In this document: positions 5,658 to 28,340 of the stretch, one piece after another | Layout: every line of letters starts with the position of its first letter | How positions within the stretch are numbered: the stretch's first letter is position 1 | Assembly: GCA_031316235.1 (NCBI GenBank) | Contig: JALDRA010000001.1 | Span: forward strand, 2,940,001 to 2,972,000 | DNA from: Candidatus Scalindua sp. | GTDB taxonomy: Bacteria; Planctomycetota; Brocadiia; Brocadiales; Scalinduaceae | DNA length: 32,000 bases | Direction of reading: 5' to 3' | Made by a program: the position numbers and the translations under genes | Notes under the pieces: generated by a model | The model's database searches: none | What the model was told of the DNA's origin: nothing | The model's input: only the letters and a program-made list of their open reading frames with translations

Positions 5658-6509
5658 ATGAATAAGGGAAGGGTGTTGATAATCGTTCCGTCATTCCGTG
5701 AAGAAAAAAATATATTTCACGTTATTTCGGGGCTAAGGGTGCATGTGCCCCATCTTGATATTTTAATCATTGATGATGGTTCAAAAGACAGAACCCAGGA
5801 GATCGCGGCGGATAATGGAGTTAAAGTTTTAAAGCACCCCTTCAATATGGGGTATGGCGTTGCGGTACAGACAGGGTATAAATATGCGGTAAAGCATGAT
5901 TATGATATAGTAGTTCAAATTGATGGTGATGGTCAGCATGATCCGAAATTTATCACTCCGCTGATCAGGACGTTGCAGCAAAGCAGAGCGGATGTTGTTA
6001 TCGGTTCCCGATTCTTAAAAGGGGGCGGATATGATGCCCCATTCATAAGAAAAGCGGGTATCAAATTTTTTTCTAAGATTGCGAGTGTTATCACAAAGCA
6101 GAAATTTACCGATTCGACATCCGGACAACAGGCCTTGAGCAGGAGAGTTTTCACCTACTTTTCCGAGCTGGACAATTTTCCCTACGATTATCCCGATGCA
6201 GATACGATTATAACCTTGTGTTTTGCCGGATTTAAGATCAAGGAAATCCCTGTCCACATGCATGACAGGATGAAGGGGAAGTCAATGATCTCGGGTATCA
6301 GGGTCATTATTTATGTCATACAGATGCTGATATCCATATTCATCATTCTCATCAGAAAGAGGAAGATAGCCAATGGCTATATACAAAGCAGCATAAACAC
6401 AAGACCGGAAGTGAAAAAGAGTGTTACAAAACTTAAGATTAAACATAAAATTAAACCAAAGATTAAGTCGAAACACAGGCTGCTGCATCCTCGTGTCTCT
6501 CTCAATTAA
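5658..6509 (+). CDS. Family-2 glycosyltransferase (polyprenyl-phosphate sugar transferase, DPM1/GtrB-like) with Lys-rich tail
   Basis: Motifs: VLIIVPSFREEKNI, ILIIDDGSKDRT, QIDGDGQHDP, one C-terminal TM helix, and the tail KLKIKHKIKPKIKSKH. An SD sequence AGGGTGGTG lies upstream. Confidence 0.85.
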   Translation: MNKGRVLIIVPSFREEKNIFHVISGLRVHVPHLDILIIDDGSKDRTQEIAADNGVKVLKHPFNMGYGVAVQTGYKYAVKHDYDIVVQIDGDGQHDPKFITPLIRTLQQSRADVVIGSRFLKGGGYDAPFIRKAGIKFFSKIASVITKQKFTDSTSGQQALSRRVFTYFSELDNFPYDYPDADTIITLCFAGFKIKEIPVHMHDRMKGKSMISGIRVIIYVIQMLISIFIILIRKRKIANGYIQSSINTRPEVKKSVTKLKIKHKIKPKIKSKHRLLHPRVSLN

Positions 6510-6581
6510 GGGACGGATCAGAAATAAGCCTCTATTATATTCCGTCTGATGATCCGCCGGTACCCGATTGCAAATTCTAAT

Positions 6582-6953
6582 ATGGCTACCAATTATATTT
6601 TTATACAGACAATTTCAGTATTAACCTTTATGTATATCATTCGGCTTATATACACGCACAAACTGAGGATTGGTAATTCGTGGTTTCTGTTTCTCCTGGG
6701 AATGGGTTTTCTTGTATTGACAGTTTTTCCGAAAACCATAAACATCCTTGGTTACATGACAGGTTCGACTTCCTGGTTGAGCAATATACTGTTTTTTCTG
6801 ATCATGTTTTTATTTATCATAATCGTCCACTGCACTCTCATGATAAAAGGACTGATCAGTCGGGTGAAAGAACTGGGGCAGCAGTTAGCACTCCTGAACT
6901 CTGAAATTGACGAGAAAAATTCATTACATAATCGAGAAACTCAATCCGCTTGA
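6582..6953 (+). CDS. Small membrane protein, DUF2304-like (usual partner of this GT2 type)
   Basis: Three or four TM helices, then an amphipathic tail VKELGQQLALLNSEI. Its position directly after the GT2 matches the GT2-DUF2304 pairing I recall. The start is either 6582 or 6549. Confidence 0.6.
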   Translation: MATNYIFIQTISVLTFMYIIRLIYTHKLRIGNSWFLFLLGMGFLVLTVFPKTINILGYMTGSTSWLSNILFFLIMFLFIIIVHCTLMIKGLISRVKELGQQLALLNSEIDEKNSLHNRETQSA

Positions 6954-7009
6954 TCTGCCAGTTTCACTATACTGTTTGTATTCATTTCAATTGGCACTTG
7001 ATTGAGCCG

Positions 7010-8008
7010 TCAACTGAAGCTCCATCTCAGCATTTCATATACGTCTCTAAGGTTTTTTCCTGTCTCCAAAACAACGGTAGGTTCAAATCCGCAATGTACC
7101 ATACAATTACGACAGCGGGGGTCTTTTCCGCTTTCGAATTTGTCCCAGTCTGTGGTGTCCATAAATTCCCTGAAAGTGCTGAAATGGGATTCTGTGATCA
7201 TATAGCAGGGGCTTTTCCAGCCGTGATAGTTTCTCGTTGGATTACCCCATGGAGTGCACATCAGATCTCTTTCGCCTTTAAGAAATTTTAAGTAGAGGGG
7301 GGTGTTCAGAATCTTGTATTTTTTTGATAGTTCATAGATAAAACTGAATTTTCGATAGAATTCCTCTTTTTGAATAAAGATATCGTTTGTATTATCCTCA
7401 AAACTGAAACCTGGTGATACGAGTATTCCATCGATATGCATTGTTGTGAGAAGTTTAAATAACTCCTCTATTTCCCGTGGATCGGAATCTTTGTAGATTG
7501 TCGTGTTTGTGCACACGTTAAAGCCCGATTGCTTGGCTTTCTTTATAGCATCAGTTGCCTTTTGAAAAACACCTTTTGCTCCGACAATACGGTCATGAGT
7601 TTCTGAAAGTCCATCCAGATGGACGTTAATGTTCAGTCGTGAATCAGGATGGAATTTCCTGAGGGAATCGGCAAGGGTGATTCCGTTTGTGCAGAGATAA
7701 ATGTGCCGTTTTTTTGAGAGAACTCCCTGTACGATCTTATCAATATCGGGGTGCAGGAGCGGTTCTCCACCCGTAATCGTAATAACGGGTGAACGGCACT
7801 CCTCTACTACGGACATGCAATCCTCAAAACTCATCATTCTATCCATAGTATCTTTAAATTCCCTTATTCTACCGCAACCTTCACATGCAAGGTTGCATTT
7901 ATGGGTAATCTCAAGCATCAGCACAAGCGGAAAACGCTTGACAAATGAGAATTTGTTTTTGATGAGATATTTTACAAGAGAATAGGTTAATTTTAATGAA
8001 CCTCTCAT
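7010..8008 (-). CDS. hpnH: Adenosylhopane synthase, hopanoid-associated radical SAM protein HpnH
   Basis: N-terminus KRFPLVLMLEITHKCNLACEGCGRIREF, then ITGGEPLLHPDI and HIYLCTNG. The C-terminal domain CTPWGNPTRNYHGWKSPCYMI...DPRCRNCMVHCGFEP is typical of HpnH. Confidence 0.9.
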   Translation of the reverse strand: MRGSLKLTYSLVKYLIKNKFSFVKRFPLVLMLEITHKCNLACEGCGRIREFKDTMDRMMSFEDCMSVVEECRSPVITITGGEPLLHPDIDKIVQGVLSKKRHIYLCTNGITLADSLRKFHPDSRLNINVHLDGLSETHDRIVGAKGVFQKATDAIKKAKQSGFNVCTNTTIYKDSDPREIEELFKLLTTMHIDGILVSPGFSFEDNTNDIFIQKEEFYRKFSFIYELSKKYKILNTPLYLKFLKGERDLMCTPWGNPTRNYHGWKSPCYMITESHFSTFREFMDTTDWDKFESGKDPRCRNCMVHCGFEPTVVLETGKNLRDVYEMLRWSFS

Positions 8009-8081
8009 TTTTATGTTAGAGCCTGCGATAGCCTGCCCAAATGTGTCGAGCGGGGGTATGAGCTAAATTCTATGAAATAAT

Positions 8082-8110
8082 TTGACATAAATATAGAGTT
8101 ATGATAGATT
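8082..8110 (+). promoter_or_regulatory. Candidate sigma70 promoter for hpnG
   Basis: TTGACA (8082-8087), 17-nt spacer, TAGATT (8105-8110), preceded by TGa (extended -10). It lies about 90 nt upstream of the hpnG ATG. Confidence 0.3.
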
Positions 8111-8200
8111 TCCGAATTCAAAGAGTATTGGTTGTAAAAAGTTCAAAAACTTCTATAGTATAGAATAGTTGTCAACTGTCAAGGGAAAAGAGGGGAAGGA

Positions 8201-8989
8201 ATGATAGCTGTCTGCTGCGCGCTGCCACAAGAACTAAACCCTCTTATATCTTGTGCGAATATTAGAAAAAAGTTTCATTTTGAAAAATCGATTTTTTATC
8301 AAGCAGATCTGAAAGGCCGGCCTGTCATTTTTGTTCAAACAGGGATTGGCAGAGAGAACGCTGTTAAAGCAACTACTCATCTTCTGCAGACCATAAATAT
8401 TACTATAGTAATATCGTCCGGGGTAGCAGGAGGTATAAGGGAAGGGATCCATGTAGGTGATTTGATATTTGCCGAAAATGTTCACTATTGCAGGCAAGGT
8501 GACTTTGGAGGAGAGAGATTACCCGTAGAGTCAGCTTTCACGGTCAAGGGCGAGCTTGTCCAGCTGGCCCTGGAACTGAGTGATAGATTAGGAGTGAAAT
8601 ATCATTGTGGTGATGTTCTGACGGTAGACAAGGTGATAGCACGTGCTGAGACAAAAAGAAAGATCGGGCGCCAGGATTCATTTATAGCCGTAGATATGGA
8701 AAGTGCTGCTATTGCTCAAATTGCTCGTGATAAGGATATAGATTTTGTGATCATACGTTCAGTCTCTGACGATGTAGATGATGACCTTGCAATAGATACC
8801 GATAACCTGATAACTGATACGGGAAAGGTCAGGATTTCTAACCTGGCCGTGAATATTATGAGGGACCCAAAGCAATTAGCAAATCTCAGACGCTTAAATA
8901 AACAGACGAAAAAGGCAGCACGATGTTTGTCTGCTTTCATGCGTGAATATATTCCCCTCCTCTATGAAAAGAAGATAGTTGATTGCTGA
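8201..8989 (+). CDS. hpnG: Hopanoid-associated nucleoside phosphorylase/nucleosidase HpnG (PNP/UDP family)
   Basis: PNP_UDP-type motifs (FVQTGIGRENA, SSGVAGG, AVDMESAAIA, IRSVSD). The gene is divergent from hpnH. Confidence 0.8.
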   Translation: MIAVCCALPQELNPLISCANIRKKFHFEKSIFYQADLKGRPVIFVQTGIGRENAVKATTHLLQTINITIVISSGVAGGIREGIHVGDLIFAENVHYCRQGDFGGERLPVESAFTVKGELVQLALELSDRLGVKYHCGDVLTVDKVIARAETKRKIGRQDSFIAVDMESAAIAQIARDKDIDFVIIRSVSDDVDDDLAIDTDNLITDTGKVRISNLAVNIMRDPKQLANLRRLNKQTKKAARCLSAFMREYIPLLYEKKIVDC

Positions 8990-9243
8990 AAGAGTAGCGG
9001 AACAAGGTGAGCTGAAAGAGAGAAGTGTAAAAAGAAAATTGAACGGTTTACAAAGGAATATCCTTTTTTCAACAACCTGAATAATTCCTTACCTGGCCGG
9101 ATGCAGCGAGTTGCTCTGTCAGAGTGTACACATAAAGAGATTATTTTTTTAACAGTATCGTTAGAAAAACCAGAAAACTCTAGCGATTACCTGCCTGAAA
9201 AAACCTGGGTGGGAAAAGGACTATATTTTTAAAGGAGATTTTT

Positions 9244-10290
9244 GTGCCATTACCGACTATAGAATGGATTGGTGGAATCGATGGAAAGATAAAGATCATA
9301 GATCAGACACTGTTGCCTAAAGAATTGAAGTACAGTTACTGCTGCGATTTAAAAGATATTTATCATGCAATTAAGACCTTAATGGTCAGGGGCGCACCCG
9401 CAATAGGAATTGCAGCTGCAATGGGAACGGTATTGGGGATTGGAAAGAGTAATTCAGGGAATTTTGAAGATTTCATGAAGGATTTGAAAGAGACCACGGC
9501 CTACCTGGGTTCTTCTCGGCCGACAGCGGTAAATTTGTTCTGGGGTTTAAAGAGGATGGAAGATACCGCCTTGAGGAACCGCCATAAGCCGGTTGCAGAT
9601 ATAAAAAATGCATTACTTGATGAGGCAAAAACTATTCTTGAAGAAGATAAGGAGATTTGTCGCAGGATCGGAGAAAATGGGGAGGCACTCATAAAAGATG
9701 GAGGCAATGTTCTTACTCATTGCAATGCAGGAGGGCTGGCTACCTCTTATTTTGGTACCGCATTAGCTTTGATCTTTGCCGCTCATGAAAAGGGTAAATC
9801 TGTCCATGTCTATGCGGATGAGACACGGCCTCTTCTCCAGGGCTCCCGGCTCACGGCATGGGAACTCAAGAATGCGGGCATTGATGTTACCTTGATATGT
9901 GATAATATGGCTGCTCATACAATGAAAGAAAAAAAGGTTGATTGTGTCATTGTCGGTGCGGACAGAATTACCGCGAATGGTGATGCTGCCAATAAGATCG
10001 GCACCTACAGCCTTTCAATCATTGCGAAGGAACATGGCATCCCTTTTTACGTTGCCGCACCCTCTTCGACCTTTGATTTGAGCCTGGCATCAGGTGCTGA
10101 AATTCCAATTGAGGAGAGAAGTTCTGAAGAAGTGACTCATATTCAAGGCAAGAGGATAGCCCCTGAAGGTATAAAAGTGTTTAATCCTGCCTTTGATGTT
10201 ACTCCTGCCGGGAATATAAAGGCCATTATAACGGAAAAAGGTGTGATCAATGACCCCACGACGGAAAAGGTTAAAAGAACAATTCAGTAA
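9244..10290 (+). CDS. mtnA: S-methyl-5-thioribose-1-phosphate isomerase (eIF-2B-like family)
   Basis: GTG start 6 nt after AAGGAG. Motifs: IIDQTLLPKE, MVRGAPAIGIAAA, SRPTAVNLFW, THCNAG, ADETRPLLQG, VGADRITANGDAANKIGTY, AFDVTP. Confidence 0.9.
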   Translation: MPLPTIEWIGGIDGKIKIIDQTLLPKELKYSYCCDLKDIYHAIKTLMVRGAPAIGIAAAMGTVLGIGKSNSGNFEDFMKDLKETTAYLGSSRPTAVNLFWGLKRMEDTALRNRHKPVADIKNALLDEAKTILEEDKEICRRIGENGEALIKDGGNVLTHCNAGGLATSYFGTALALIFAAHEKGKSVHVYADETRPLLQGSRLTAWELKNAGIDVTLICDNMAAHTMKEKKVDCVIVGADRITANGDAANKIGTYSLSIIAKEHGIPFYVAAPSSTFDLSLASGAEIPIEERSSEEVTHIQGKRIAPEGIKVFNPAFDVTPAGNIKAIITEKGVINDPTTEKVKRTIQ

Positions 10291-10303: not shown

Positions 10304-10415
10304 TATACTAAAACCGATTTGGTTTTCGGTAAAACCTGAAACCAAATCTTGGTGAAGGTATACTCGCTCAATTTTATCTCGGATTTTATCCGAAAACCAA
10401 TATGAGATGAGTATA
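10304..10415 (+). mobile_element. MITE-like repeat, copy B (112 bp, short variant)
   Basis: TATACTAAAACCGATTTGGTTTTCGG...CCGAAAACCAATATGAGATGAGTATA. It starts 13 nt after the mtnA stop codon. Confidence 0.85.
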
Positions 10416-10460
10416 AAAAAGTGACCGGGATTTTAAACAACTAAATAAGGAGAACATCTT

Positions 10461-12821: not shown

Positions 12822-13313
12822 ATGATGAGAGCTAAAGATTTTGCCGATGAGCTGGTATCTGCCGGCTTCGATTTTTTTACGGGTGTTCCCTGCTCAATTA
12901 TTGGAAACCTGATTTTAGAACTTACCGCTAGGCCCGATATTGCCTATGTACCGGCGGTCAGAGAAGATGTTGCTGTAGGTATTGCAGGCGGTGCTTATAT
13001 GGCAGGAAAAAAACCCGTAGTCCTAATGCAGAATTCGGGGCTTGGGCAATGCTTGAATGCCCTTACTTCCCTGAACCTTATCTACGAACTTCCCTGCCTC
13101 TTGGTAGTTACCTGGAGAGGGTTTGAAGGCAAAGATGCTCCGGAACACATCGTAATGGGTGAGACATGTGACAGGATTCTTGATACAATAGGCATTGTTC
13201 ACCATACACTCAGCGGCGATAATGTCAAAGAGCTTATTAAAGAATCATTTACCCATATCATTGAGAAAAAAACACCTACAGCTCTTTTTTTAAAAAAAGG
13301 GATAATTGAATGA
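12822..13313 (+). CDS. Phosphonopyruvate decarboxylase, alpha (N-terminal ThDP) subunit
   Basis: FDFFTGVPCS, MQNSGLG and TWRGFEGKDAPEHIVMG resemble Ppd (FFTGVPDS, WRGxPGxKDEPQH) more than methanogen ComD. It is adjacent to the beta subunit and phnW. Confidence 0.75.
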   Translation: MMRAKDFADELVSAGFDFFTGVPCSIIGNLILELTARPDIAYVPAVREDVAVGIAGGAYMAGKKPVVLMQNSGLGQCLNALTSLNLIYELPCLLVVTWRGFEGKDAPEHIVMGETCDRILDTIGIVHHTLSGDNVKELIKESFTHIIEKKTPTALFLKKGIIE

Positions 13314-13870
13314 ATTGCAGGGAAGCAGTAAAAACAGTAACAGCAATATTAAATGATCAATTAGTAATATGCGCTAACGGCATAATAAGCCGGGAAACGT
13401 TCACGGCCAGAGACAGGGCGGAAAATTTTTACATGATAGGATCCATGGGTTTGGCATCATCTATTGGTCTGGGAGTGGCATTAAGTAACCAGTCACGAAA
13501 GGTAATAGTTTTTGATGGTGATGGGAATCTGTTGATGAATCTCGGATCTCTCACGATGGTGGGTACACTCCGGCCTAAGAATTTTCTGCATATTGTATTT
13601 GATAACGAAGCTTATGGCTCGACAGGCAATCAACCTACCGTATCGAACATGATAGCCCTTGAGAATATTGCAAAATCAGCCGGATACCTCTATGCTAAGA
13701 AAATTGCCGAAAAGGAATGCCTGATACAGGAGGTTAATCAACTCCTGGAGCTGGAGGGTCCTTCATTCCTTCTTGTTAAGATTTCCAGGTATGCGGGGGA
13801 GACAGACGCCGGCAGGGTAGCTCTTAGCCCTGAACAGATAAAAGGCCGTTTTATGACTGCTATGCAGTAG
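13310..13870 (+). CDS. Phosphonopyruvate decarboxylase, beta (C-terminal ThDP-binding) subunit
   Basis: A 4-nt ATGA overlap with the alpha subunit suggests translational coupling. The ThDP motif is GDGNLLMNLGSL...FDNEAYGSTGNQ. Confidence 0.75.
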   Translation: MNCREAVKTVTAILNDQLVICANGIISRETFTARDRAENFYMIGSMGLASSIGLGVALSNQSRKVIVFDGDGNLLMNLGSLTMVGTLRPKNFLHIVFDNEAYGSTGNQPTVSNMIALENIAKSAGYLYAKKIAEKECLIQEVNQLLELEGPSFLLVKISRYAGETDAGRVALSPEQIKGRFMTAMQ

Positions 13871-13951
13871 TACTTGTCTGGCCGGCTGTTCCGGGGAGAG
13901 GGTGTTGATTAATGTTTTTTCTGCTGTACGGTATTTTTTAGGGAGTCTGAA

Positions 13952-15034
13952 TTGAGAAAGATGATTTTGTTGAATCCTGGTCCTGTATGTACCTCTGAAA
14001 GAGTAAGAAAGGCACTGTTACGCGGTGATATGTGCCATCGGGAAAAGGAGTTTTCGAAGATCTTGAAAGGAGTACGCAAAAAAATTATCCAGGCCTTCGC
14101 ACCAGATGGTGATTACACAACAGCAGTCATTACAGGTTCTGGTACCGCGTCTTTGGAGGCGGGAGTATGTTCTTCGGTAAGTGAGGGGAAAAAACTCCTG
14201 GTTGTAGACAATGGGGTTTATGGTGACAGGATAGCCCGCATTGCATCTGCACATAAAATTGATAAGGTTGTGCTGAAATATGATTGGTTTAAACTGCCGG
14301 ACATTGCAGAGATAGAAGAGACGGTATCGAAGGATAAAGATATTGAGGTGATTGCCATGGTACACCATGAGACTACGACAGGTTTGTTAAATCCTGTCCA
14401 TAGTATTGGTGAAATAGCAAAAAAATATAAAAGGTCCTTTCTCGTTGATTCTATAAGCGGTCTTGGTGGTGAAAAGATTGATCTGGTCAATGATAACGTG
14501 GATATTTGTATTGGTTCGGCAAATAAATGTATTCAGGGCCTGCCCGGATTATCATTTGTTCTGCTGAAGAAATCTGAACTAGACAGGCTCAGAAGTATTC
14601 CAGCACGATCTCTCTATTTTCATCTGGTTTCCCAAATTGATGATCAGGAGGAGAGGGGAGAATGTCCCTTCACACCTTCGGTACATACATTTTATGCCTT
14701 TGAAGAGGCTTTAGATGAACTACTGGAAGAGGGTGTTGCGAATCGGATAAAAAGGTATCAAAGGGCTTCGGGATTTCTCCGAAGAGAATTCAAGAATTTA
14801 CATTTAGAATTCCTCCTGCCTGTCAAACTTCGTTCTAATACCATCACTGCATTAAATTTACCCGATAGCATGACATATACCCTTCTGCATGATAGGTTAA
14901 AGGAAAGAGGCTTTGTTATCTATGCGGGGCAGGGGCAATTACATGCAAAAATATTCAGGATTGCAAACATGGGAGAACTGTCTATGCAAGATTTGGAAGA
15001 GTTTATCAGAAATTTTAAAGATATCATAAACTGA
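13952..15034 (+). CDS. phnW: 2-aminoethylphosphonate:pyruvate aminotransferase
   Basis: LLNPGPV, SANKCIQGLPGLSFVL, RLKERGFVIYAGQ and FRIANMGEL closely parallel enterobacterial PhnW as recalled (SSANKCIQGVPGFAFV, RLKEQGFVIYPGK, FRIGNIGEV). The TTG start at 13952 is 6 nt after GGGAG; an alternative ATG is at 13961. Confidence 0.85.
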   Translation: MRKMILLNPGPVCTSERVRKALLRGDMCHREKEFSKILKGVRKKIIQAFAPDGDYTTAVITGSGTASLEAGVCSSVSEGKKLLVVDNGVYGDRIARIASAHKIDKVVLKYDWFKLPDIAEIEETVSKDKDIEVIAMVHHETTTGLLNPVHSIGEIAKKYKRSFLVDSISGLGGEKIDLVNDNVDICIGSANKCIQGLPGLSFVLLKKSELDRLRSIPARSLYFHLVSQIDDQEERGECPFTPSVHTFYAFEEALDELLEEGVANRIKRYQRASGFLRREFKNLHLEFLLPVKLRSNTITALNLPDSMTYTLLHDRLKERGFVIYAGQGQLHAKIFRIANMGELSMQDLEEFIRNFKDIIN

Positions 15035-15082
15035 AGTATCAACTTTGTTGTTGTGATGGGGTTGATGAGCAGAAATGATGAA

Positions 15083-15194
15083 TATACTAAAATCGATTTG
15101 GTTTTTGGTTTTACCTGAAACCAAATCCTGGTGAAGGTATGCTCGCTCAACTTTATCCCGGATTTTATCCGAAAACCATTATGAGATGAGTATA
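15083..15194 (+). mobile_element. MITE-like repeat, copy C (112 bp, short variant)
   Basis: TATACTAAAATCGATTTGGTTTTTGG...CCGAAAACCATTATGAGATGAGTATA. It lies between phnW and the cytidylyltransferase gene. Confidence 0.85.
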
Positions 15195-15235
15195 ACAAGA
15201 AAGTAACGTAAAAATTTTAAAGGATACTGAACACT

Positions 15236-15967
15236 ATGAAGGTCATAATATTAGCAGCAGGTGTAGGAAAGAGGATGTCGTCAGTAACAGGTCAGACTCC
15301 CAAATGTCTCATTAAGATAGGGGAAAAGACGCTTCTGGAAAATTATCTTGAATCTTTTCATGCACTGGGGTTACAGGAAATTGTCATTGTTGTTGGTCAT
15401 CATAAAGAGAAGATCCAGGAAACGATAAAAACCAAAGGTAAGAGTTTTAATATACGATATATAGAAAATGAACAGTACACAAAGGGCAGCATTCTCTCTT
15501 TGTGGTATGCCAGAAATGAGTTAGATGAAGACACATTGATTATGGATGCTGATGTCTTGTTTCACAAGAAGTTACTGGCAAAGTTGGTAACCTCAAAAGA
15601 TCAAAACTGTTTTTTGTTAGATGAGGATTTTGAAGATTCCGGTGAAGAGATGAAGTTATTTGTTGCAGGGGGTAGGGTAATCGGAATCTCAAAACAATCT
15701 TCTTATGATTCTGAATTAGTAGGTGAAGGGGTAGGTTTTCTGAAACTTTCTCAAGCAGGAGGTGCTATCCTTAAAGATGTGCTTGAAGAGTTTGAGAGAA
15801 ATGGCAAGGTCAATGTCGAATACGAAGATGCCTTGCACGAACTCCTGTCGAGCTGTCCTGTCGGATTTGAAAGAGTGGGAGATCTCCCGTGGATAGAAAT
15901 CGATTTTGAATCAGACATTGAAAAGGCAAAAAATGAAATTTTACCAAGGTTGCTAATATGTCCATAA
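15236..15967 (+). CDS. LicC/PntC-like cytidylyltransferase (predicted CMP-AEP synthase)
   Basis: Nucleotidyltransferase P-loop MKVIILAAGVGKRM...PKCL. Size (243 aa) and the position after ppd and phnW fit an AEP cytidylyltransferase. The substrate is inferred from context. Confidence 0.7.
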   Translation: MKVIILAAGVGKRMSSVTGQTPKCLIKIGEKTLLENYLESFHALGLQEIVIVVGHHKEKIQETIKTKGKSFNIRYIENEQYTKGSILSLWYARNELDEDTLIMDADVLFHKKLLAKLVTSKDQNCFLLDEDFEDSGEEMKLFVAGGRVIGISKQSSYDSELVGEGVGFLKLSQAGGAILKDVLEEFERNGKVNVEYEDALHELLSSCPVGFERVGDLPWIEIDFESDIEKAKNEILPRLLICP

Positions 15968-17256
15968 CTGCCATAATAATCTTCTCCGATAGTTCCGAGA
16001 ATGGTACCACAGCAGAATGGTACAGAAGGGAAATTGCATCTACGCCACTATACAAGCACTGTATCCTTTCTGCCAGTAAGGCAGGGATAACAAAGTTTGT
16101 TTTTCTGGGGTGCGGTTTAAAAGAAGAGATAGAAAATGGCCTCAGGGTGGAGAGGCAAATTGAGTGCGATATGGTATGGTATGACAGGGAGGCAACCATG
16201 TCTCTGGGCAAGGTGATTGCCGATGAAATTTCGAAAGATGAAAAGTTCTTTATCATTAAGGCAAATTCCCTCTTTGATTACCGAGTTCTTGGTTTCCTGG
16301 CAGGGAATACTTCTGACGACACGATTGCAGCAGTTGTCAGGCGAGACAGATCAGAAATATTTAAAAACAGTTCAATGAACAGTATTGCAGAAGACCTCAA
16401 TTTACAAGATAAGATACACGGCGGGATTGTTGCAACCTCTCGAAACATTTTAAACATTCTGGATCCTCAAATTTCAGTACGCTCTCTTGAGAGTTTGCTT
16501 GAGATGCTGGAGAGGGAAAATCTTCTGAAGTCTGTAACAGTAAAAGAGTATTTACACGAGGAGGTAGACTCTGAGGAGAGCCTGCTATCGGGAGAGAAAA
16601 AGCTTTATCAATCGTTGGGGAGTTCATCAGATAGTCCCGTTCTTGATAAATATATTATACGCAGGATATCAAGGTGTATTTCTCGTTTATCCTTGAAAAC
16701 GCCTGTTACCCCAAATCAGGTTACCATTATCAGTTTGGTCTTGGGCCTCTTGTCTGGATTTTTCTTCTCTTTCGGTGAATTTACCTACGGGATTTCCGGT
16801 GGCGTTCTTTATTTTCTGTCTGTAATTTTTGACCAGTGTGATGGCGAAATTGCAAGGTTAAAATATATGGAATCAGAATCGGGAAGAATCCTTGATATAA
16901 TTACCGATACGGTAGTGAATGCTGCAATTGTTGTGGGAATTACCGCTGGAATTTACAGGAATAATGGTTCTGGTTTTATCATTATCTTGGGACTCCTGGC
17001 GATGCTTGGTATCTCGCTCTCTCTTCTTTTGACAACAATTTTAAAAAAGGAGGGGGTGGGGGATAATAGTTCCAATGGCTTTTTTGATAAACTGAACAAT
17101 AAAGATTTCTTTTACATAATCATCATACTCTGTATTTTGACTGATCAAATGATATGGTTTCTCTGGGTAATGGCTGTCGGTACAAATTTCTATTGGTTAG
17201 CACTCAAGGCAGTACACCCCATGAGACGTCTGATATTCTTTTCTGTCCGGAGATGA
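15958..17256 (+). CDS. Fusion of a degenerate nucleotidyltransferase-like domain with a CDP-alcohol phosphotransferase
   Basis: A 10-nt overlap with the upstream gene. The complete motif D-x2-DG-x2-AR-x8-G-x3-D-x3-D is present in FDQCDGEIARLKYMESESGRILDIITD, and the C-terminal half has multiple TM helices. The roughly 200-aa N-terminal domain lacks the GxGxR loop. Confidence 0.8.
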   Translation: MSITAIIIFSDSSENGTTAEWYRREIASTPLYKHCILSASKAGITKFVFLGCGLKEEIENGLRVERQIECDMVWYDREATMSLGKVIADEISKDEKFFIIKANSLFDYRVLGFLAGNTSDDTIAAVVRRDRSEIFKNSSMNSIAEDLNLQDKIHGGIVATSRNILNILDPQISVRSLESLLEMLERENLLKSVTVKEYLHEEVDSEESLLSGEKKLYQSLGSSSDSPVLDKYIIRRISRCISRLSLKTPVTPNQVTIISLVLGLLSGFFFSFGEFTYGISGGVLYFLSVIFDQCDGEIARLKYMESESGRILDIITDTVVNAAIVVGITAGIYRNNGSGFIIILGLLAMLGISLSLLLTTILKKEGVGDNSSNGFFDKLNNKDFFYIIIILCILTDQMIWFLWVMAVGTNFYWLALKAVHPMRRLIFFSVRR

Positions 17257-17471: not shown

Positions 17472-18296
17472 ATGGAAGACAAGATAATAATATTCACTGA
17501 TTTAGATGGTACTTTGATTGACCATCATACCTATTCTCATCATGATGCAGAAGAGGCACTGGCAGAGGTAAAAAAGCAGAAGGCCTCTCTTGTCTTATGT
17601 TCAAGTAAAACCAAAGAAGAAATAGAGGTCTATAGAAAAAGGCTTTCAAACAGCGAACCCTTCGTTGTCGAAAATGGAGGGGCTATCTTCATTCCGAAAG
17701 AGTATAAGCTTTTAACGGATAGATTTGATCATGAAGATAATGACTATTTCATAATAAAAATAGGCACTGAATATCAAAAACTGGTAGATGTCTTTGAGAA
17801 GATAAGAAGAAAAACCGGAGTTGATACAAAGGGCATTAACGAGTTCACCTTAGAGGAGTTTATTCAGATAACTAAGTTGCATAAGGAAGAAGCAGTGCTT
17901 GCCATGAAACGAGAATACACGCTGCCTTTTGTTGTACATGGTGGAGTGGAAGAGGTAAAAGCCATAAAAGACGAAATAGCATTATCTGGTCTCAATTTTA
18001 CTGAGGGTGCCAAGTTTATGTACCTTATGGGTTCGAACGATAAGGGTAAGGCGGTACGGATTTTGGTAGACATCTTTAAAAGAAACTATCGAGAGGGAAA
18101 AATAACTACCGTAGGTATTGGTGATAGTTTAAACGATCTTCCAATGTTGGAGGCGGTAGAAAAACCATTTCTGGTAAAAAAAATATCAAACGATTACGAT
18201 GGGCGCATAAGGGTTAAAAACCTCGTGCTTGCTGACGGGATTGGTCCTGTTGGTTGGAATAAGGCAGTCTTGCGGCTGTTTAAAAAAAAAGGTTGA
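17472..18296 (+). CDS. HAD-IIB phosphatase, mannosyl/glucosyl-3-phosphoglycerate phosphatase family (YedP-like)
   Basis: IIFTDLDGTLIDHHTYS, LCSSKTKEEI, VVENGGAIF and GIGDSLNDLPML parallel E. coli YedP as recalled. Confidence 0.8.
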   Translation: MEDKIIIFTDLDGTLIDHHTYSHHDAEEALAEVKKQKASLVLCSSKTKEEIEVYRKRLSNSEPFVVENGGAIFIPKEYKLLTDRFDHEDNDYFIIKIGTEYQKLVDVFEKIRRKTGVDTKGINEFTLEEFIQITKLHKEEAVLAMKREYTLPFVVHGGVEEVKAIKDEIALSGLNFTEGAKFMYLMGSNDKGKAVRILVDIFKRNYREGKITTVGIGDSLNDLPMLEAVEKPFLVKKISNDYDGRIRVKNLVLADGIGPVGWNKAVLRLFKKKG

Positions 18297-18323: not shown

Positions 18324-18691
18324 ATGGGAGATTTTCACCAGTCAGGCGAAGTTACAACTCTGCACAGATTTGGAAACTCAGGCCTTAATAAGCTGAGTTC
18401 CGCAGTAAAAAAACTCTCACGCTTAAGGCCGGTAGCCCCTGTATACTCATCTCATACTGGTTTTCGGATAAAATCCGAGATAAAATTGAGCGAGTAAAGT
18501 CCTCGGCGCCTGGTCAGGGGATACCTTCACCAGGATTTGGTATACTCCCAACGATCTTTTCTGGATTGGAAAGTTCCGCGTTACCGAAAATCCTGGATGA
18601 ATTAAAGGAGGTTAAATACCTCAATCAAATGATAGTTACCCTGGGTGGATTTAATAAAGAGCAATTTAAGTATGCAAAGAAATTTGCATAA
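18324..18691 (+). pseudogene. gpgS: Relic of glucosyl-3-phosphoglycerate synthase (N-terminal ~90 codons only), split by a MITE
   Basis: A GGGAGG SD and ATG are followed by MGDFHQSGEVTTLHRFG...SRLRPVAP. Then comes MITE copy D. The sequence resumes in a different frame as LPTIFSGLESSALPKILDELKEVKYLNQMIVTLGGFNKEQFKYAKKFA, then TAA. Both pieces match the GpgS N-terminus as recalled; the remaining roughly 300 codons are absent. Confidence 0.55.
18442..18545 (-). mobile_element. MITE-like repeat, copy D (104 bp, long-variant core, inner hairpin end deleted)
   Basis: TATACTCATCTCATACTGGTTTTCGGATAAAATCCGAGATAAAATTGAGCGAGTAAAGTCCTCGGCG...CCAGGATTTGGTATAC. It lies inside the gpgS relic. Confidence 0.8.
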
Positions 18692-18696
18692 ATTTT

Positions 18697-20034
18697 ATGA
18701 AAATGGATATCCTTACGCTGAGAAAACATGCAGAAGAAATTTTCAGGCATGTATTATGTACCCTGGATCCTGAGCAGTTGGTGAAGAAAAGGCTGTTTAT
18801 GCATGATTCTACACTTTCGGTAGGGCAGAAGGAATACAACCTCGATGAGTATGAACATATCTATGTCATAGGAGGGGGGAAAGCGTGTGCACCAATGGCG
18901 AAAGCAATAGAAGATATTCTGGGAGACAGGCTCGATGGTGGAATCGTTATTGTGAAATATGGCCATGGTTTACTGCTCAGGAAGATCAAAATTGTTGAGG
19001 CTTCACATCCCCTTCCGGATATGAATGGGATGGAGGGAACCACTGAGATACTCAAACTGCTATCAAGAACCGGGGAGAAAGACCTGATACTCTGTCTTAT
19101 TTCCGGTGGAGGTTCAGCCCTGCTTGTTCAGCCACATGCTGAAACAACTCTGGAAGACATACAAACCACGTCAAATGAACTGCTTGCCTGTGGAGCTAAG
19201 ATTGACGAAATTAATGCGGTGAGAAAACATGTATCAATGATCAAGGGGGGGCAACTGGCAAAAGCTGTATTTCCTTCGAGGCTTGTTACATTGATGCTGT
19301 CAGATGTTGTGGGAGATCCAATGGATATTATTGCATCAGGTCCTACTGTGCCTGATGAAAGTACTTTTGAAGATGCTTACAGGGTAATTCAAAAATATGC
19401 ATTAGAAAACAAGATACCGGATAGCGTCAGTGATCTCTTAAGGAGAGGAAGAATTGGACAAGTACCGGAAAATCCAAAACGGGGAGATGTGGTATTTGAC
19501 AATACGCAAAATGAGATTATCGGATCTAACAAAATAGCCTTAGAAGCTGCGAAAGATAAAGCCGCTGATTTGGGATATAATACCATAATTCTCTCCTCTC
19601 TGGTACAGGGAGAAAGTAGAGAGGTAGCAAAATTTTTTGCTGCCATTGCTAAGGAAGTTGGCCGAACTCAGTCACCGATAGGAAAACCTGCATGCATCAT
19701 TGCTGGCGGTGAAACAACGGTAACGATACGGGGAGATGGTAAAGGGGGGAGAAATCAGGAGTATGCTCTTTCCGCTGCCCTCGAGATTGAAGGTGAACAG
19801 GATATTGTGATTCTCAGTGGAGGGACCGATGGAACAGACGGCCCAACGGACGCTGCGGGTGCGATCGTTGATGTTTATACGTGTTGTGATGCGAGATCCA
19901 AATTCAACTTGAGCCCGGAAGACTATCTGCAGAGGAACGACTCATACAATTTTTTTCATCAGCTTGGGCAACTCCTCATTACGGGTCCCACTCTTACAAA
20001 TGTGATGGATCTTACGATCTCCCTGATAATATGA
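18697..20034 (+). CDS. Glycerate 2-kinase / hydroxypyruvate reductase-like (MOFRL family)
   Basis: Motifs: VIGGGKA, LISGGGSALL, IAGGETTV, GKGGRNQE, SGGTDGTDGPTDAAGA. Confidence 0.85.
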   Translation: MKMDILTLRKHAEEIFRHVLCTLDPEQLVKKRLFMHDSTLSVGQKEYNLDEYEHIYVIGGGKACAPMAKAIEDILGDRLDGGIVIVKYGHGLLLRKIKIVEASHPLPDMNGMEGTTEILKLLSRTGEKDLILCLISGGGSALLVQPHAETTLEDIQTTSNELLACGAKIDEINAVRKHVSMIKGGQLAKAVFPSRLVTLMLSDVVGDPMDIIASGPTVPDESTFEDAYRVIQKYALENKIPDSVSDLLRRGRIGQVPENPKRGDVVFDNTQNEIIGSNKIALEAAKDKAADLGYNTIILSSLVQGESREVAKFFAAIAKEVGRTQSPIGKPACIIAGGETTVTIRGDGKGGRNQEYALSAALEIEGEQDIVILSGGTDGTDGPTDAAGAIVDVYTCCDARSKFNLSPEDYLQRNDSYNFFHQLGQLLITGPTLTNVMDLTISLII

Positions 20035-20422: not shown

Positions 20423-20840
20423 ATTTAAGAAATTCAGAGATGCGGGAGAGCGGATAACACAAGAAAAATCTGCCAGGCAAACATACCATAATGACCTTGA
20501 GGCACAACTTGAAGCGCATTTCAAGATTATCAATGCCTGTTCAATAGAAACGGAAGACAAAGATAGAGTATTGTTAGCAGCCAGGCCTGAATCAAGATAT
20601 CCCTATTTTTATCCCCGCGATGCAGCGTGTGCATCAGAACTCCTTGCCCGTCTTTCTACTTCCTAATACGCATTTGCAGATGAAGCATTTAAACTCCTCA
20701 CCTCAGTTACAAAATTTGTTTTGAAGGCTATAAGGGGTGATGGGTTTGTTGGACAAAGATATGCACTTTCCGGCGAAGAAAAAAGTATTTACAAACAGGA
20801 AGACAATAATGCACATGGTATGATTATCCTTTCTCATTAG
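20418..20840 (+). pseudogene. Relic of a GH15-family glycoside hydrolase (internal fragment with in-frame TAA)
   Basis: VLLAARPESRYPYFYPRDAACASELLARL, then TAA (20664-20666). The same frame continues as FADEAFKLL...GDGFVGQRYALSGEEKSIYKQEDNNAHG, then TAG at 20838-20840. This is about 140 codons of an enzyme that is normally several hundred residues long. There is no credible start, since the GTG at 20418 lies inside the hairpin. Confidence 0.5.
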
Positions 20841-20866
20841 CACCTCTCATATGGTCGCACGTAGAA

Positions 20867-20978
20867 TATACTAAAACCGATTTGGTTTTCGGTTTTTCTG
20901 AAAACCAAATCTTGGTGAAGGTATACTCACTCCGTTTTTTCTCGGATTTTATCCGAAAACCATTATGAAATGAGTATA
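20867..20978 (+). mobile_element. MITE-like repeat, copy E (112 bp, short variant)
   Basis: TATACTAAAACCGATTTGGTTTTCGG...CCGAAAACCATTATGAAATGAGTATA. It starts 26 nt after the end of the GH15 relic. Confidence 0.85.
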
Positions 20979-21039
20979 TATGAAGGCTTTACCCTATAAA
21001 CATGGTCTTTATTTAAATGGGAATACAGAGAAGGGTTCA

Positions 21040-21079
21040 AACTGTTTTGTATAAGAATGCTTTCTTATACAAAACAGTT
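21040..21079. repeat. Perfect 18-bp inverted repeat with 4-nt loop
   Basis: AACTGTTTTGTATAAGAA (21040-21057), then tgct, then TTCTTATACAAAACAGTT (21062-21079). It lies about 87 nt downstream of the minus-strand polyprenyl synthase stop. No flanking U-tract is present on either strand. Confidence 0.55.
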
Positions 21080-23042: not shown

Positions 23043-23159
23043 TATACTAAAACCGATTTGGTTTTCGGTTTTAGTTATCCCCGGATAAAAAACGCCGAGG
23101 ACTTTACTCGCTCAAATTTATCTCGGATTTTGTCCGAAATCCAGTATGAGATGAGTATA
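23043..23159 (+). mobile_element. MITE-like repeat, copy F (117 bp, long-variant core, second hairpin arm deleted)
   Basis: TATACTAAAACCGATTTGGTTTTCGGTTTTAGTTATCCCCGGATAAAAAACGCCGAGGACTTTACTCGCTC...CAGTATGAGATGAGTATA. It lies upstream of bioD. Confidence 0.85.
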
Positions 23160-23342: not shown

Positions 23343-24158
23343 TTAGAGAAGATTGTCCTGTACACCTAATATCAGCTTGTCTCCCTTCTGTAGGGCTAAA
23401 ATATTTTCAGCATTTCCCTGATTTACAGATATCTCAAGGAATCCAGTACTTCCAATAATGGCTAATACTTCCTTCTCTTTTACGTCGGTATACGAAGTGC
23501 TAATTTTGTCTATTCTTTTTTCCCCAGCAATAATTGAGAGTTTCTGAGATTTTACTTGCATCCGGTTAATGATTTTGCTGGTAATGTTTGTAATAAGATT
23601 TCCAAAATGGTCCACATAAATGACTTCACCTGTCAAGGTACCACCAGGTGAACGGATCGGTTTTGGTAAATCAATTTTCCTTATCTTATCTATCTTTTCT
23701 CCTAACTTTTGATGATTAGTCCCTTTTGAAAGGTATGCGGCAACAGGTGCAAATATGTCACGACCATGGAAGGTGTTACTAGGTTCAGTTAAAAAAAACT
23801 CTTTATTTGTTACACTAGTAAAAGAGAAAGATTTTGTATCTGTCGTTACAAATGATAGAGCACCATTATCTGGAGCGAGAAAAAGGTAATCGTCTGTTTT
23901 CAGGCATAAGATCTTCCTTTCACTTCCCACTCCGGGATCAACGACAACGATATGAATTGTACCCTTCGGGAAGTATTTATAAGAACTGTTGAGGATATAA
24001 GCTGCTTGAAAGATATTTTGATTTTCTATCATGTTGCTGATATCAATTATGTTTGCTGATGGATTGATTCCGGTAATTATTCCCTTCATTACTCCAACAT
24101 ATCCATCTTGTAAACCAAAATCTGTAATAAGTGTTATTGTGGGTTGTAACTTTGACAT
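23343..24158 (-). CDS. S-adenosyl-L-methionine hydroxide adenosyltransferase (DUF62 SAM hydrolase family)
   Basis: ITLITDFGLQDGYVGVMKG, VVVDPGVGSERK, APDNG, FHGRDIFAP, VIYVDHFGNLITNI and LEISVNQGNA parallel archaeal DUF62 proteins as recalled. ATG at 24158 is preferred over TTG at 24215. Confidence 0.8.
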   Translation of the reverse strand: MSKLQPTITLITDFGLQDGYVGVMKGIITGINPSANIIDISNMIENQNIFQAAYILNSSYKYFPKGTIHIVVVDPGVGSERKILCLKTDDYLFLAPDNGALSFVTTDTKSFSFTSVTNKEFFLTEPSNTFHGRDIFAPVAAYLSKGTNHQKLGEKIDKIRKIDLPKPIRSPGGTLTGEVIYVDHFGNLITNITSKIINRMQVKSQKLSIIAGEKRIDKISTSYTDVKEKEVLAIIGSTGFLEISVNQGNAENILALQKGDKLILGVQDNLL

Positions 24159-24198
24159 ATGGATATGATTAGATTTATCAGCACCTAAATTAAAAAGG

Positions 24199-25323
24199 CT
24201 AGTTGAGATTCCCAATTATCGGAATTCTGAAACCACACTGTGGGCACATCAGGTTCTCTAAAAAAGAAGTTATCACTGAAAATCCTGCTCTTTCAATCAG
24301 CATCTTGCCACATTCATGGCAGTAGGTATTTTCCCACTTGTGGCCGGGGACATTTCCTGTATAAACATATTTAAGTCCTTCTTCCACTCCTATTTTTCTT
24401 GCCAGCTCAAGTGTTGATATAGGGGTTTGTGCTACCTGAGATAAACCAAGATATGGATAAAACTTACTCAAGTGCCATGGCGTCTCATCGCCTAGATGTC
24501 GAACTATCCAACGGGCGATTTCATGTAATTCTTCAGCATCATCATTGTACCCGGGCACAATGTTGGTAATAATCTCTACATGCATGTTCCATTTTGTTTT
24601 TGCTCTGATAGTAGCATCTAATATAGGTTTGACACTCTTGACATTTGCAACATCTTTATAAAAGCAATATCTTGCGTCCTGGAGTCTTGGACTTGTTTGC
24701 ATTTCGGTTTCTGACACATGGTGTGCTTTGCAGCCGTCGAATCCCTTTATATCAACTCGGTAGGCATCTAAAAAAGGTCCTATCGCATCCAAAGCATCTA
24801 GCTCTATATACCCATTTGTTACAAAAACCGTATAGAGGTCTTTGCTTTTTGCGAGTTTTGCGCTATCAATTGCATATTCAATCCAAATCGTAGGTTCATT
24901 GTATGTCCAAGAAATACCCTGGCAACGGTTTTCTAATGTCAGCTCTATTAATCTTTCCGGGGAGATGTATGTAGTGGATCGAGTACTGTTTTTTGCTGTA
25001 GAGTGAGCTATCTGCCAGTTTTGACAGTGACGGCAGCGCATATTACATCCCAGAGATCCTACAGAAAATGTGGAGCTACCCGGGTAAAAATGATATAGTG
25101 GTTTTTTTTCTATCGGATCTGCACCGGCTGACGAGATCTCTCCGTAAATAAGAGAATAAAGTTTTCCGTCGATATTTTGCCTAACTCCGCAGTAACCGAA
25201 CTCGTTATGAGAAATTACACATTTATGCGGACATAGGTCGCAAGAGACCTTTTTGCCACTTACAGAACGATAAAATAAGGCGTTATGTTTCATTTCTGTT
25301 TGTTTTGCAATTTCAGTTGTCAA
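24199..25323 (-). CDS. AmmeMemoRadiSam-system-type radical SAM enzyme
   Basis: CDLCPHKCVISHNEFGYCGVRQN, DPIEKKPLYHF, the CxxxCxxC cluster GCNMRCRHCQNW, and the C-terminal YCHECGKMLIER...CPQCG. The start is TTG at 25323 or, more typical in length, ATG at 25293. Confidence 0.8.
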   Translation of the reverse strand: MTTEIAKQTEMKHNALFYRSVSGKKVSCDLCPHKCVISHNEFGYCGVRQNIDGKLYSLIYGEISSAGADPIEKKPLYHFYPGSSTFSVGSLGCNMRCRHCQNWQIAHSTAKNSTRSTTYISPERLIELTLENRCQGISWTYNEPTIWIEYAIDSAKLAKSKDLYTVFVTNGYIELDALDAIGPFLDAYRVDIKGFDGCKAHHVSETEMQTSPRLQDARYCFYKDVANVKSVKPILDATIRAKTKWNMHVEIITNIVPGYNDDAEELHEIARWIVRHLGDETPWHLSKFYPYLGLSQVAQTPISTLELARKIGVEEGLKYVYTGNVPGHKWENTYCHECGKMLIERAGFSVITSFLENLMCPQCGFRIPIIGNLN

Positions 25324-26635: not shown

Positions 26636-26643
26636 GTGGTAAA

Positions 26644-26766: not shown

Positions 26767-28340
<1,574 letters not shown>

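Follow-up and report, generated by a model that had tools for sequence, protein, structure and literature searches.

2-Aminoethylphosphonate (AEP) is the most abundant biogenic phosphonate. In Tetrahymena, AEP is incorporated into glycerolipids by a Kennedy-type route, in which CMP-AEP serves as the analogue of CDP-ethanolamine and a CDP-alcohol phosphotransferase transfers the head group onto diacylglycerol (DAG). Data on the AEP glycerolipids of Tetrahymena have been published (PMC2108490). Gene clusters in which pepM, the gene of phosphoenolpyruvate (PEP) mutase, occurs together with genes for phosphonopyruvate decarboxylase (Ppd), AEP aminotransferase (AEPT), an NTP-transferase and a CDP-alcohol transferase constitute a published class of predicted phosphonolipid clusters (PMC8942020, PMC5987646). 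The class comprises the 'Group 1' and 'Burkholderiales_CDP-OH' clusters of Yu et al. 2013, as cited by Li & Horsman 2022 (PMC8942020), and a cluster from a Nostoc cyanobiont (PMC5987646). Here we analyzed a stretch of 32,000 nucleotides (the window; positions 2,940,001 to 2,972,000 of contig JALDRA010000001.1) from a metagenome-assembled genome (MAG) of Candidatus Scalindua, in which the contig is 4,149,782 bp long. A block of five genes at positions 12822-17256 of the window is probably a cassette for the synthesis, activation and transfer of AEP, i.e. an operon of the Pnt type.

Gene content of the cassette and proposed pathway

Five same-strand open reading frames (ORFs) are arrayed in the block, as given by the initial annotation of the window, which had assigned them to a split Ppd, an AEP transaminase, a PntC-like enzyme and a CDP-alcohol phosphotransferase of an anammox bacterium. 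Candidatus Scalindua is indeed such an organism, and the enzyme assignments are upheld by curated profiles, solved structures and comparative context. The genes are as follows.

12822..13313, + strand, gene 1: predicted Ppd alpha subunit, PYR/TPP_enzyme_N domain (PF02776), 163 aa
13310..13870, + strand, gene 2: predicted Ppd beta subunit, PP/TPP_enzyme_C domain (PF02775), 186 aa, ATGA overlap with alpha
13952..15034, + strand, gene 3: AEPT of the PhnW/AepZ type, Aminotran_5 (PF00266), 360 aa
15236..15967, + strand, gene 4: PntC-like cytidylyltransferase (PF12804/PF00483), predicted CTP:AEP cytidylyltransferase making CMP-AEP, 243 aa
15958..16647, + strand, gene 5, N-terminal ~230 aa: degenerate, probably inactive domain with nucleotidyltransferase (NT) fold (hhalign, AF2 model)
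16648..17256, + strand, gene 5, C-terminal membrane domain: predicted CDP-alcohol phosphotransferase (PF01066, 52.4 bits, cutoff 22)

Genes 1 and 2 overlap by ATGA at 13310-13313 and genes 4 and 5 by 10 nt at 15958-15967, both of which had been annotated and are read directly from the sequence; the 10-nt overlap is also seen in other Scalindua loci. Gene 5 as a whole spans 15958-17256 and encodes 432 aa. The gene upstream of the cassette is pyrF, again as annotated (TIGR02127, 259 bits, cutoff 111). Scans of promoters and terminators gave fewer matches than shuffled controls and were uninformative on operon structure.

From these assignments we infer a pathway in which a PEP mutase (PepM), encoded outside the window, would provide phosphonopyruvate. 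Genes 1 and 2 would form a heteromeric Ppd, dependent on thiamine pyrophosphate (TPP), that converts phosphonopyruvate to phosphonoacetaldehyde, and gene 3, a class-V aminotransferase, would convert phosphonoacetaldehyde to AEP. The PntC-like product of gene 4 would join AEP and CTP to CMP-AEP, from which the product of gene 5 would transfer the aminoethylphosphonyl group to a hydroxyl acceptor with release of CMP. The acceptor would most likely be a diacylglycerol-type membrane lipid, giving a phosphono analogue of phosphatidylethanolamine (PE), as predicted for 'Group 1' clusters. The case for the route up to CMP-AEP is reasonably strong, and beyond it we somewhat favour a lipid over a soluble product.

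Comparison with described systems

The cassette and the 'Group 1' clusters have in common Ppd, AEP aminotransferase, a stand-alone PF12804 nucleotidyltransferase and a CDP-alcohol phosphatidyltransferase. In 'Group 1', pepM is present in the cluster and usually fused to PntC, whereas the window and the flanks of all Scalindua loci found in this study are devoid of it. 'Group 1' clusters also possess a 2-oxoglutarate (2OG)/Fe(II) oxygenase and HpnL, neither of which is encoded in the window; AEP is therefore expected rather than 1-hydroxy-AEP, given that the oxygenase is missing. Further differences are the division of Ppd into two genes and a transferase carrying an apparently dead NT domain. 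Orthologues of the cassette in Nitrospira also have a Ppm-NT fusion and an HpnL-like membrane protein, and in gene content they correspond to the 'Group 1' clusters and to the Nostoc cluster. The logic of the pathway is not new, having already been published for a predicted phosphonolipid class (PMC8942020, PMC5987646). What the locus adds is a known predicted cluster type in a new lineage, the anammox Planctomycetota, in which no phosphonate metabolite or head group is reported in the searchable literature. Our literature search found nothing that links ladderane lipids with phosphonolipids or AEP. Apart from a supplementary table on the Cariaco Basin (PMC9902471), it also yielded nothing specific on pepM or phosphonolipids in Scalindua or other anammox bacteria, or on phosphonate biosynthesis in Nitrospira.

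Tde1415 of Treponema denticola, described by Rice et al. 2019 as an enzyme of the Pnt pathway, is a PntC-AEPT fusion (PDB 6PD1/6PD2) and was shown experimentally to make CMP-AEP (PMC6697681). Gene 4 matches its PntC domain over the full length and gene 3 its AEPT domain, and the two genes are adjacent in the window like the parts of the fusion. However, Tde1415 is an NT-aminotransferase (AT) fusion with E104, whereas the window has separate genes in the order AT then NT, with Asp at the position of E104. The downstream transfer in T. denticola is thought to proceed by Lic-type machinery to glycans, whereas the partner in the window is a CDP-alcohol phosphotransferase. The Tetrahymena route follows the same logic as the cassette; its enzyme is of the eukaryotic EPT/CEPT type, with no demonstrated homology to gene 5 apart from the common motif. 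By analogy, the block appears to combine the Pnt logic of Rice et al. with a Kennedy-type transfer, and its gene content resembles that of a 'Group 1' cluster without PepM.

The cassette in other genomes and its association with PEP mutase

One genome per GTDB species was scanned with a profile of the beta subunit, and the resulting 80 loci were screened with every window protein and with PepM, the flanks being covered up to 10 kb. Eleven loci come from Scalindua/Scalinduaceae, two from other Brocadiales, about 50 from Nitrospirota (including the closed genome of Ca. Nitrospira defluvii), one from Chlamydiae and about 16 from others. The alpha-beta-AT-NT core is kept in most of the 80 loci, and a match to the CDP-alcohol (CDP-OH) transferase lies downstream in about 65; among the roughly 16 others, several Binatia and Thermodesulfobacteriota have alpha-beta-AT-NT with no transferase detected. 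The cassette is kept in at least 11 Scalindua genomes, at 65-87% protein identity. Two of these loci (L009 and L011) are from marine Scalindua and have a short form of the cassette.

A PepM-NT fusion (Ppm-PntC-type) of 556-559 aa was found 1-5 kb from the cassette in 17 of the 80 loci, sixteen of Nitrospira type and the one from Chlamydiae. Of all the evidence for phosphonate handling by the cassette, this association is the strongest. In a further contig (L098), PepM-NT, Ppd, NT, AT and the CDP-OH transferase are encoded in a single operon, and the PepM is canonical. The fusions are located as follows.

L028 5651-7330, - strand: PepM-NT fusion beside the cassette, motif EDNxxPKxCS
L030, L031, L032, L034, L039, L040, L047, L048, L050, L055, L057, L070, L076, L077, L081, L087: the 16 other loci bearing PepM-NT

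All 17 cassette-linked PepM domains display EDNxxPKxCS in place of EDKxxxxxNS, with Mytilus K116 changed to N and N122 to C, and conserve D58, D85, D87, E114, K120, S123, R159 and H190. Scoring 288 bits to PepM 5UNC, 250 bits to phosphonopyruvate hydrolase (PPH) 2DUA and at most 156 bits to lyases, these proteins belong firmly to the PepM/PPH clade. Position 122 also separates the hydrolase from the mutase (Thr in 2DUA). In the global protein set, many clusters at 50% identity are defined by the EDNxxPKxCS variant, yet the main pepM surveys drop PF13714 proteins that lack EDK(X)5NS. The initial annotation had recommended a genome search that requires the EDKxxxxxNS signature as a check. Since the variant is found in every cassette-adjacent PepM of the 17 loci, such a motif-filtered search could give a false negative.

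To our knowledge, PEP mutase is the only source of phosphonopyruvate, the substrate of Ppd. As the initial annotation had noted, none is encoded in the 32 kb: no PEP_mutase/ICL Pfam domain was found in any ORF of at least 110 aa, and tblastn with Mytilus PepM (a query verified to be identical to PDB 1M1B) found nothing. Across the window and 97 loci, tblastn for PepM returned none for this genome. The best 120 matches listed in a profile search with the cassette-linked PepM-NT fusions were all from Nitrospira, with no Scalindua, which is not a genome-wide negative. PepM candidates were traced to Nanoarchaeia, another archaeon, Nitrospina, a Bacteroidota-like genome and a cyanobacterium.

Although the missing PepM had been regarded as exceptional, an adjacent PepM is absent in 63 of the 80 loci, and in 42 of the 56 with at least 8 kb of upstream flank. 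In the closed genome of Ca. N. defluvii (L093, FP929003.1), the cassette and its AcrB/HlyD/TetR flanks are kept at 6291-9471 and the PepM-NT slot is empty, compared with L028 3683-9385. PepM can also be unlinked from the downstream phosphonate genes, for which there is precedent in Nitrospina. Contig AQTY01000032.1 of a Nitrospina single-amplified genome (L095 6495-8231) encodes a 578-aa PepM-NT fusion with the canonical motif, standing alone among rseP, proS, rimP, nusA and infB, and the 90% cluster of this protein has 78 members and is abundant in marine data. Within the genus itself, the Scalindua MAG CarAnox_MAG_1208 from the Cariaco Basin contains an antiSMASH 'phosphonate' region called by the PepM hidden Markov model (HMM), with a core gene of 1,611 bp (PMC9902471 Supplementary Data 4). 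This is the size of a PepM-NT fusion and the only positive support for PepM found for the genus.

The frequent lack of a nearby PepM, closed genomes included, can be read differently, namely that the cassette of Scalindua is independent of PEP mutase. The decarboxylase would then act on sulfopyruvate, giving sulfoacetaldehyde and taurine, or on 3-phosphohydroxypyruvate, giving phosphoglycolaldehyde and phosphoethanolamine, and in the latter case genes 4 and 5 would constitute a bacterial Kennedy-like CDP-ethanolamine route to PE. The loss of PepM-NT from its usual slot in Ca. N. defluvii, where the flanking genes are kept, fits such independence, as does the fact that protein searches retrieved no PepM from Scalindua. 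The latter failure, however, reflects the limits of the tools and is not a genome-wide negative, and the congeneric MAG does have a match to the PepM-HMM. The enzymes themselves bear on the choice of substrate and are considered in the next section.

Two side observations concern Scalindua cassettes. In marine Scalindua, the cassette is followed by a conserved gene for a 547-aa SagB-type dehydrogenase of the nitroreductase family (TIGR03605, 95.5 bits; L011 13190-14833 and L009 7244-8890). Two copies of the whole cassette were found in Candidatus Scalindua sp. OFTM180 (L017 and L023, on contigs 156 and 170), which could be due to duplication, strain heterogeneity or a binning artefact.

Decarboxylase, aminotransferase and cytidylyltransferase

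The alpha subunit matches the N-terminal half of the single-chain Ppd model TIGR03297 with 130.7 bits and the ComD model TIGR03845 with 135.2 bits, below the cutoff of 147.95. The beta subunit matches the C-terminal half of TIGR03297 with 180.9 bits and the ComE model TIGR03846 with 192.0 bits, below the cutoff of 221.5, and carries the TPP motif GDG-x26-NE at residues 70-100. The two subunits sum to 311.6 bits on TIGR03297, of which the equivalog cutoff is 312.5. Both are collinear with single-chain Ppds directly next to canonical PepMs (35-42% identity between alpha and the N-terminal halves of such Ppds), and orthologues of beta with 50-57% identity adjoin the PepM-NT fusions in the 17 loci.

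A verified split Ppd is known: RhiEF, the heteromeric Ppd of rhizocticin biosynthesis in Bacillus subtilis (PDB 9IZ3/9IZ4; reviewed in PMC12141560). Like the proteins in the window, it consists of two TPP decarboxylase subunits of ~160-190 aa that are homologues of ComD and ComE. RhiE (9IZ3_A, 125 bits) is the top solved relative of alpha and RhiF (9IZ3_B, 112 bits) that of beta; the similarity is moderate, and RhiEF differs in being encoded in an antibiotic cluster with PepM. We judged Ppd versus ComDE by calibrating the HMM scores on relatives. Split relatives linked to PepM score 300-317 bits on TIGR03297 and PepM-adjacent single-chain Ppds 343-383 bits. As the PepM-linked split relatives score like the subunits in the window, the ambiguous ComDE/Ppd scores are a property of the clade and not a sign of sulfonate chemistry. 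The ComDE-like scores and split architecture do not point to sulfonates, all the more since RhiEF exists; the initial annotation had named clustering with ComDE as a possible pointer to such chemistry. With RhiEF as the closest structure and the single-chain Ppds collinear, the ambiguity is resolved toward Ppd, and the assignment of genes 1 and 2 as a predicted split Ppd of RhiEF type is largely supported.

Gene 3 passes the equivalog model TIGR03301 (PhnW-AepZ) with 373.3 bits at a cutoff of 360.8. The five PDB entries that match it best, with E values from 3.5e-67 to 1.3e-46, are without exception AEP transaminases, the AEPT domain of Tde1415 among them. An S-x-N-K sequence, SANK, is found at residue 189, which we take to be the place of the pyridoxal phosphate lysine of class-V transaminases.

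Gene 4 scores 53.9 bits on PF12804, and among solved structures it is closest to the PntC domain of Tde1415 (6PD1, E 9e-19), with LicC and IPCT ranking behind. Its R13, K23 and the K in 'ISK' correspond to the catalytic R15, K25 and K153 of Tde1415. In Tde1415 the AEP amine is contacted by E104 and E196, and Glu instead of Asp at both sites is associated with a small pocket; gene 4 conserves E196.

With these assignments, the independence from PEP mutase raised above becomes distinctly improbable. It draws on the decarboxylase scoring on ComD/ComE as well as on Ppd and on the LicC-like Asp of gene 4 at the E104 position of Tde1415. Both the ComD and ComE cutoffs are failed, though, in the pattern shared by the PepM-linked clade, and the score of the aminotransferase exceeds the cutoff of an equivalog model specific for AEP. 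A nucleotidyltransferase could not activate taurine or another sulfonate in the usual way, and no genes of coenzyme M, sulfolactate or cysteate metabolism were found among the window ORFs, where the decarboxylase shares its operon with an AEP transaminase and a PntC-like enzyme. For the phosphohydroxypyruvate variant, we know of no enzyme that decarboxylates this compound. Sulfopyruvate decarboxylase with coenzyme M or taurine chemistry was rejected as a lead, given the failed cutoffs, the like-scoring PepM-linked relatives and the phosphonate-specific partners.

CDP-alcohol phosphotransferase and its acceptor

The motif of gene 5, DQCDGEIARLKYMESESGRILDIITD (D-x2-DG-x2-AR-x8-G-x3-D-x3-D), is intact at residues 292-317, as had been reported. 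Its top solved relatives are AF2299 (4O6M, E 1e-17) and IPCT-DIPPS (4MND), and its top curated-model match is IPCT/DIPPS NF041135. The AlphaFold (AF2) model of gene 5 (pLDDT 75.8) displays continuous helices at residues 228-431 and matches AF2299 (top) and IPCT-DIPPS 4MND across both domains, with TM scores of 0.66/0.69 for 4MND. Like IPCT/DIPPS (4MND) and AF2299 (4O6M) of Archaeoglobus fulgidus, gene 5 comprises a cytoplasmic NT fold followed by a six-helix-type CDP-alcohol phosphotransferase with the same motif. It differs in scoring 79.8 bits on NF041135 against the cutoff of 580, which places it outside the IPCT/DIPPS family, in the loss of the catalytic Lys and DxD, and in that the operon would supply CMP-AEP rather than CDP-inositol.

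The N-terminal domain of gene 5 alone matches the folds of RmlA and MurU and aligns to the gene-4 family (hhalign E 3.5e-5), with Trp at the equivalent of the catalytic Lys and the DxD sequence 'MDADVLF' changed to 'IKANSLF'. The Nitrospira orthologue has a weak NTP_transf_3 match, and the orthologues of marine Scalindua, 205-214 aa long, wholly lack the domain, which is thus not essential to the chemistry. As modelled, gene 5 would retain the architecture of IPCT/DIPPS, its own NT domain being dead and gene 4 providing the activity in trans.

The features that follow the cassette are relevant to the acceptor and are given here.

17472..18296, + strand: HAD-IIB phosphatase, mannosyl/glucosyl-3-phosphoglycerate phosphatase family (TIGR01486, 204.9 bits, cutoff 164.75)
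18324-18443 and 18542-18715: remnants of a GpgS-like gene (aa 1-40 and 40-97), intact with 402 aa in related Scalindua genomes

The diacylglycerol-type acceptor, which the initial annotation had raised as a condition, is an assumption, for the closest relatives of gene 5 (AF2299, IPCT-DIPPS and the PIP synthases) include users of soluble inositol-phosphate acceptors. The chemistry could be the same up to CMP-AEP with gene 5 placing AEP on a soluble or non-lipid acceptor, such as inositol or glycerol phosphate, a glycan or a protein-linked sugar; by analogy to DIPP synthase, a phosphonate solute or surface decoration would result. We regard this as unlikely. The resemblance to IPCT/DIPPS in best curated match, fold and NT-CDP-OH architecture favours it, together with the inositol-phosphate acceptors of DIPP synthase and the PIP synthases, but the NF041135 score is far below its cutoff and the chemistry does not depend on the N-terminal domain, which marine Scalindua lacks. 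A phosphorylated alcohol as acceptor would call for a phosphatase, and a sugar-phosphate-type HAD phosphatase does stand directly after the cassette in window-type Scalindua loci. In relatives, however, the HAD gene is followed by the 402-aa GpgS-like gene (NF040724, 383 bits), and the phosphatase is most likely, judging from this neighbour, the GpgP partner in a decayed glucosylglycerate module and not part of the phosphonate cassette. This compatible-solute module appears to have been lost in the genome studied. Scalindua is marine and needs osmolytes, which would suit a phosphonate solute, but marine Scalindua and Nitrospira versions of the cassette have no HAD gene and adjoin fatty-acid genes or an HpnL-like, lipid-associated membrane protein.

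These neighbours are in favour of a lipid acceptor: fatty-acid synthesis genes lie near the marine Scalindua version, and the Nitrospira cassette is followed by an HpnL-like LPG_synthase_TM gene, also found in L012. The precedent of the predicted phosphonolipid clusters points the same way. Synthesis of di-myo-inositol phosphate by genes 4 and 5 with the HAD phosphatase was considered and rejected; NF041135 is seven-fold under its cutoff, gene 4 is nearer to PntC than to IPCT, and HAD pairs with GpgS in relatives.

Purifying selection and gene decay around the cassette

In comparison with two other Scalindua genomes, the ratio of nonsynonymous to synonymous substitutions (dN/dS) is 0.09-0.13 for alpha, 0.15-0.21 for beta, 0.10-0.15 for gene 3, 0.13-0.14 for gene 4 and 0.23-0.25 for gene 5 as a whole. 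The range across all five genes, 0.09-0.25, compares with 0.11-0.13 for pyrF; all five are under purifying selection, indistinguishable from pyrF. This argues that the substrate is present in the cell and argues against a relic.

The gap of 200 nt between genes 3 and 4 is caused by an inserted repeat resembling a miniature inverted-repeat transposable element (MITE), which is absent in relatives: the same junction is 15 nt long, with no repeat, in L005 and L008. The repeat is ~115-145 bp long; its termini are inverted repeats (TATACT...AGTATA), and it contains two stable hairpins (RNA fold z = -3.9). Seven copies are distributed over the 32 kb, one of which sits inside a gene remnant.

15083..15195, unstranded: MITE-like repeat between genes 3 and 4; it interrupts the operon and is not a pathway component
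2938-3041(-), 10304-10416, 15083-15195, 18442-18541(-), 20864-20978, 23043-23159, 25503-25643(-): the seven repeat copies

A cassette reduced to a relic, its PepM lost if ever inherited, disrupted by a mobile element and without product, would be in keeping with the MITE-like element between genes 3 and 4, with the neighbouring decay that has left only fragments of GpgS and of a 458-aa gene, and with the frameshift of gene 4 in one relative (L006). Yet the insertion is intergenic, the five ORFs are intact and their translational overlaps conserved, dN/dS equals that of pyrF, and the cassette is retained throughout the Scalindua genomes mentioned above. We consider the relic highly improbable.

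Several other features of the neighbourhood were observed. The fragments of the 458-aa gene, at 20454-20837 and 20825-21051, have no Pfam matches, and the gene is intact in L005-L008. A complete rRNA operon is present in the region 26417-31948, with 16S at 26767-28333, two tRNAs at 28449-28636, 23S at 28719-31754 and 5S at 31839-31948; a minus-strand tRNA is found at 26417-26489. A gene of the S-adenosylmethionine (SAM) hydroxide adenosyltransferase family at 23343-24215(-) adjoins a radical-SAM gene at 24199-25323(-), and two further radical-SAM genes, one of DUF3463 type and one of SPASM type, are located at 7010-8008(-) and 4384-5637(+).

Weight of the evidence

A number of observations count against an AEP cassette that ends in a phosphonolipid. 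The 'Group 1' clusters are predictions, none of whose lipids has been characterised chemically (PMC8942020). The summed Ppd score is just under its cutoff, with ComD and ComE scores marginally higher, and gene 4 has Asp, the LicC state, where Tde-PntC has E104; note that Ari-PntC is LicC-like yet specific for AEP (PMC6697681). Among characterised enzymes, those nearest to gene 5 work with soluble inositol-phosphate acceptors or with CDP-DAG as donor rather than with CMP-AEP and DAG, and in the genome studied genes 3 and 4 are parted by the MITE-like insertion. For the 11 Scalindua-labelled loci, flanks of up to 10 kb were covered and contain no PepM. A search of 50%-identity representatives, in which 20 candidates were followed by source and five by context, gave none from Scalindua, which again is not a genome-wide negative. 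The evidence from CarAnox_MAG_1208 rests on metagenomic binning and concerns a different Scalindua species. Finally, the cassette-linked PepMs remain under the TIGR02320 cutoff (287.7 against 319.55), so that, with the non-canonical motif, the partner that suggests phosphonate handling by association is not a proven mutase.

Set against the conserved synteny with PepM-PntC fusions in other lineages and the family-level identities of all five genes, these points leave the synthesis, activation and transfer of AEP the probable function of the block. The phosphonate interpretation of the initial annotation stands in its enzyme assignments and its organism; its views of the missing PepM and the motif-filtered check do not, and the lipid acceptor is an assumption.

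Implications for Scalindua, Nitrospira and the PepM family

A wider proposal, which we put forward as tentative and rather doubtful in its full extent, is that Scalindua and Nitrospira carriers of the cassette put an AEP head group on their membrane lipids (ladderanes in Scalindua) and use a PepM that is unlinked or of the EDNxxPKxCS type, overlooked by EDK(X)5NS surveys. If true, anammox bacteria would have a class of lipids for which there is no report so far, and the proposal concerns chemolithoautotrophs of key importance in nitrogen cycling. Enrichment cultures of both Scalindua and Nitrospira exist, which opens the prediction to direct testing.

The analysis also exposes a widespread PepM-like subfamily with Cys at the Asn122 position, fused to NT and encoded next to Ppd and AEPT. 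Standard motif filters remove this Cys variant, and gene-based estimates of phosphonate producers may consequently be too low.

An active cassette would make marine anammox bacteria AEP producers, and their membranes might bear phosphono head groups that resist phosphatases and phospholipases. The use of ladderanes as biomarkers would be affected, since a species with 15.995 Da less mass than PE could escape notice or be assigned wrongly. Such activity would bear on the phosphorus economy of oxygen-minimum zones and on the marine phosphorus redox cycle.

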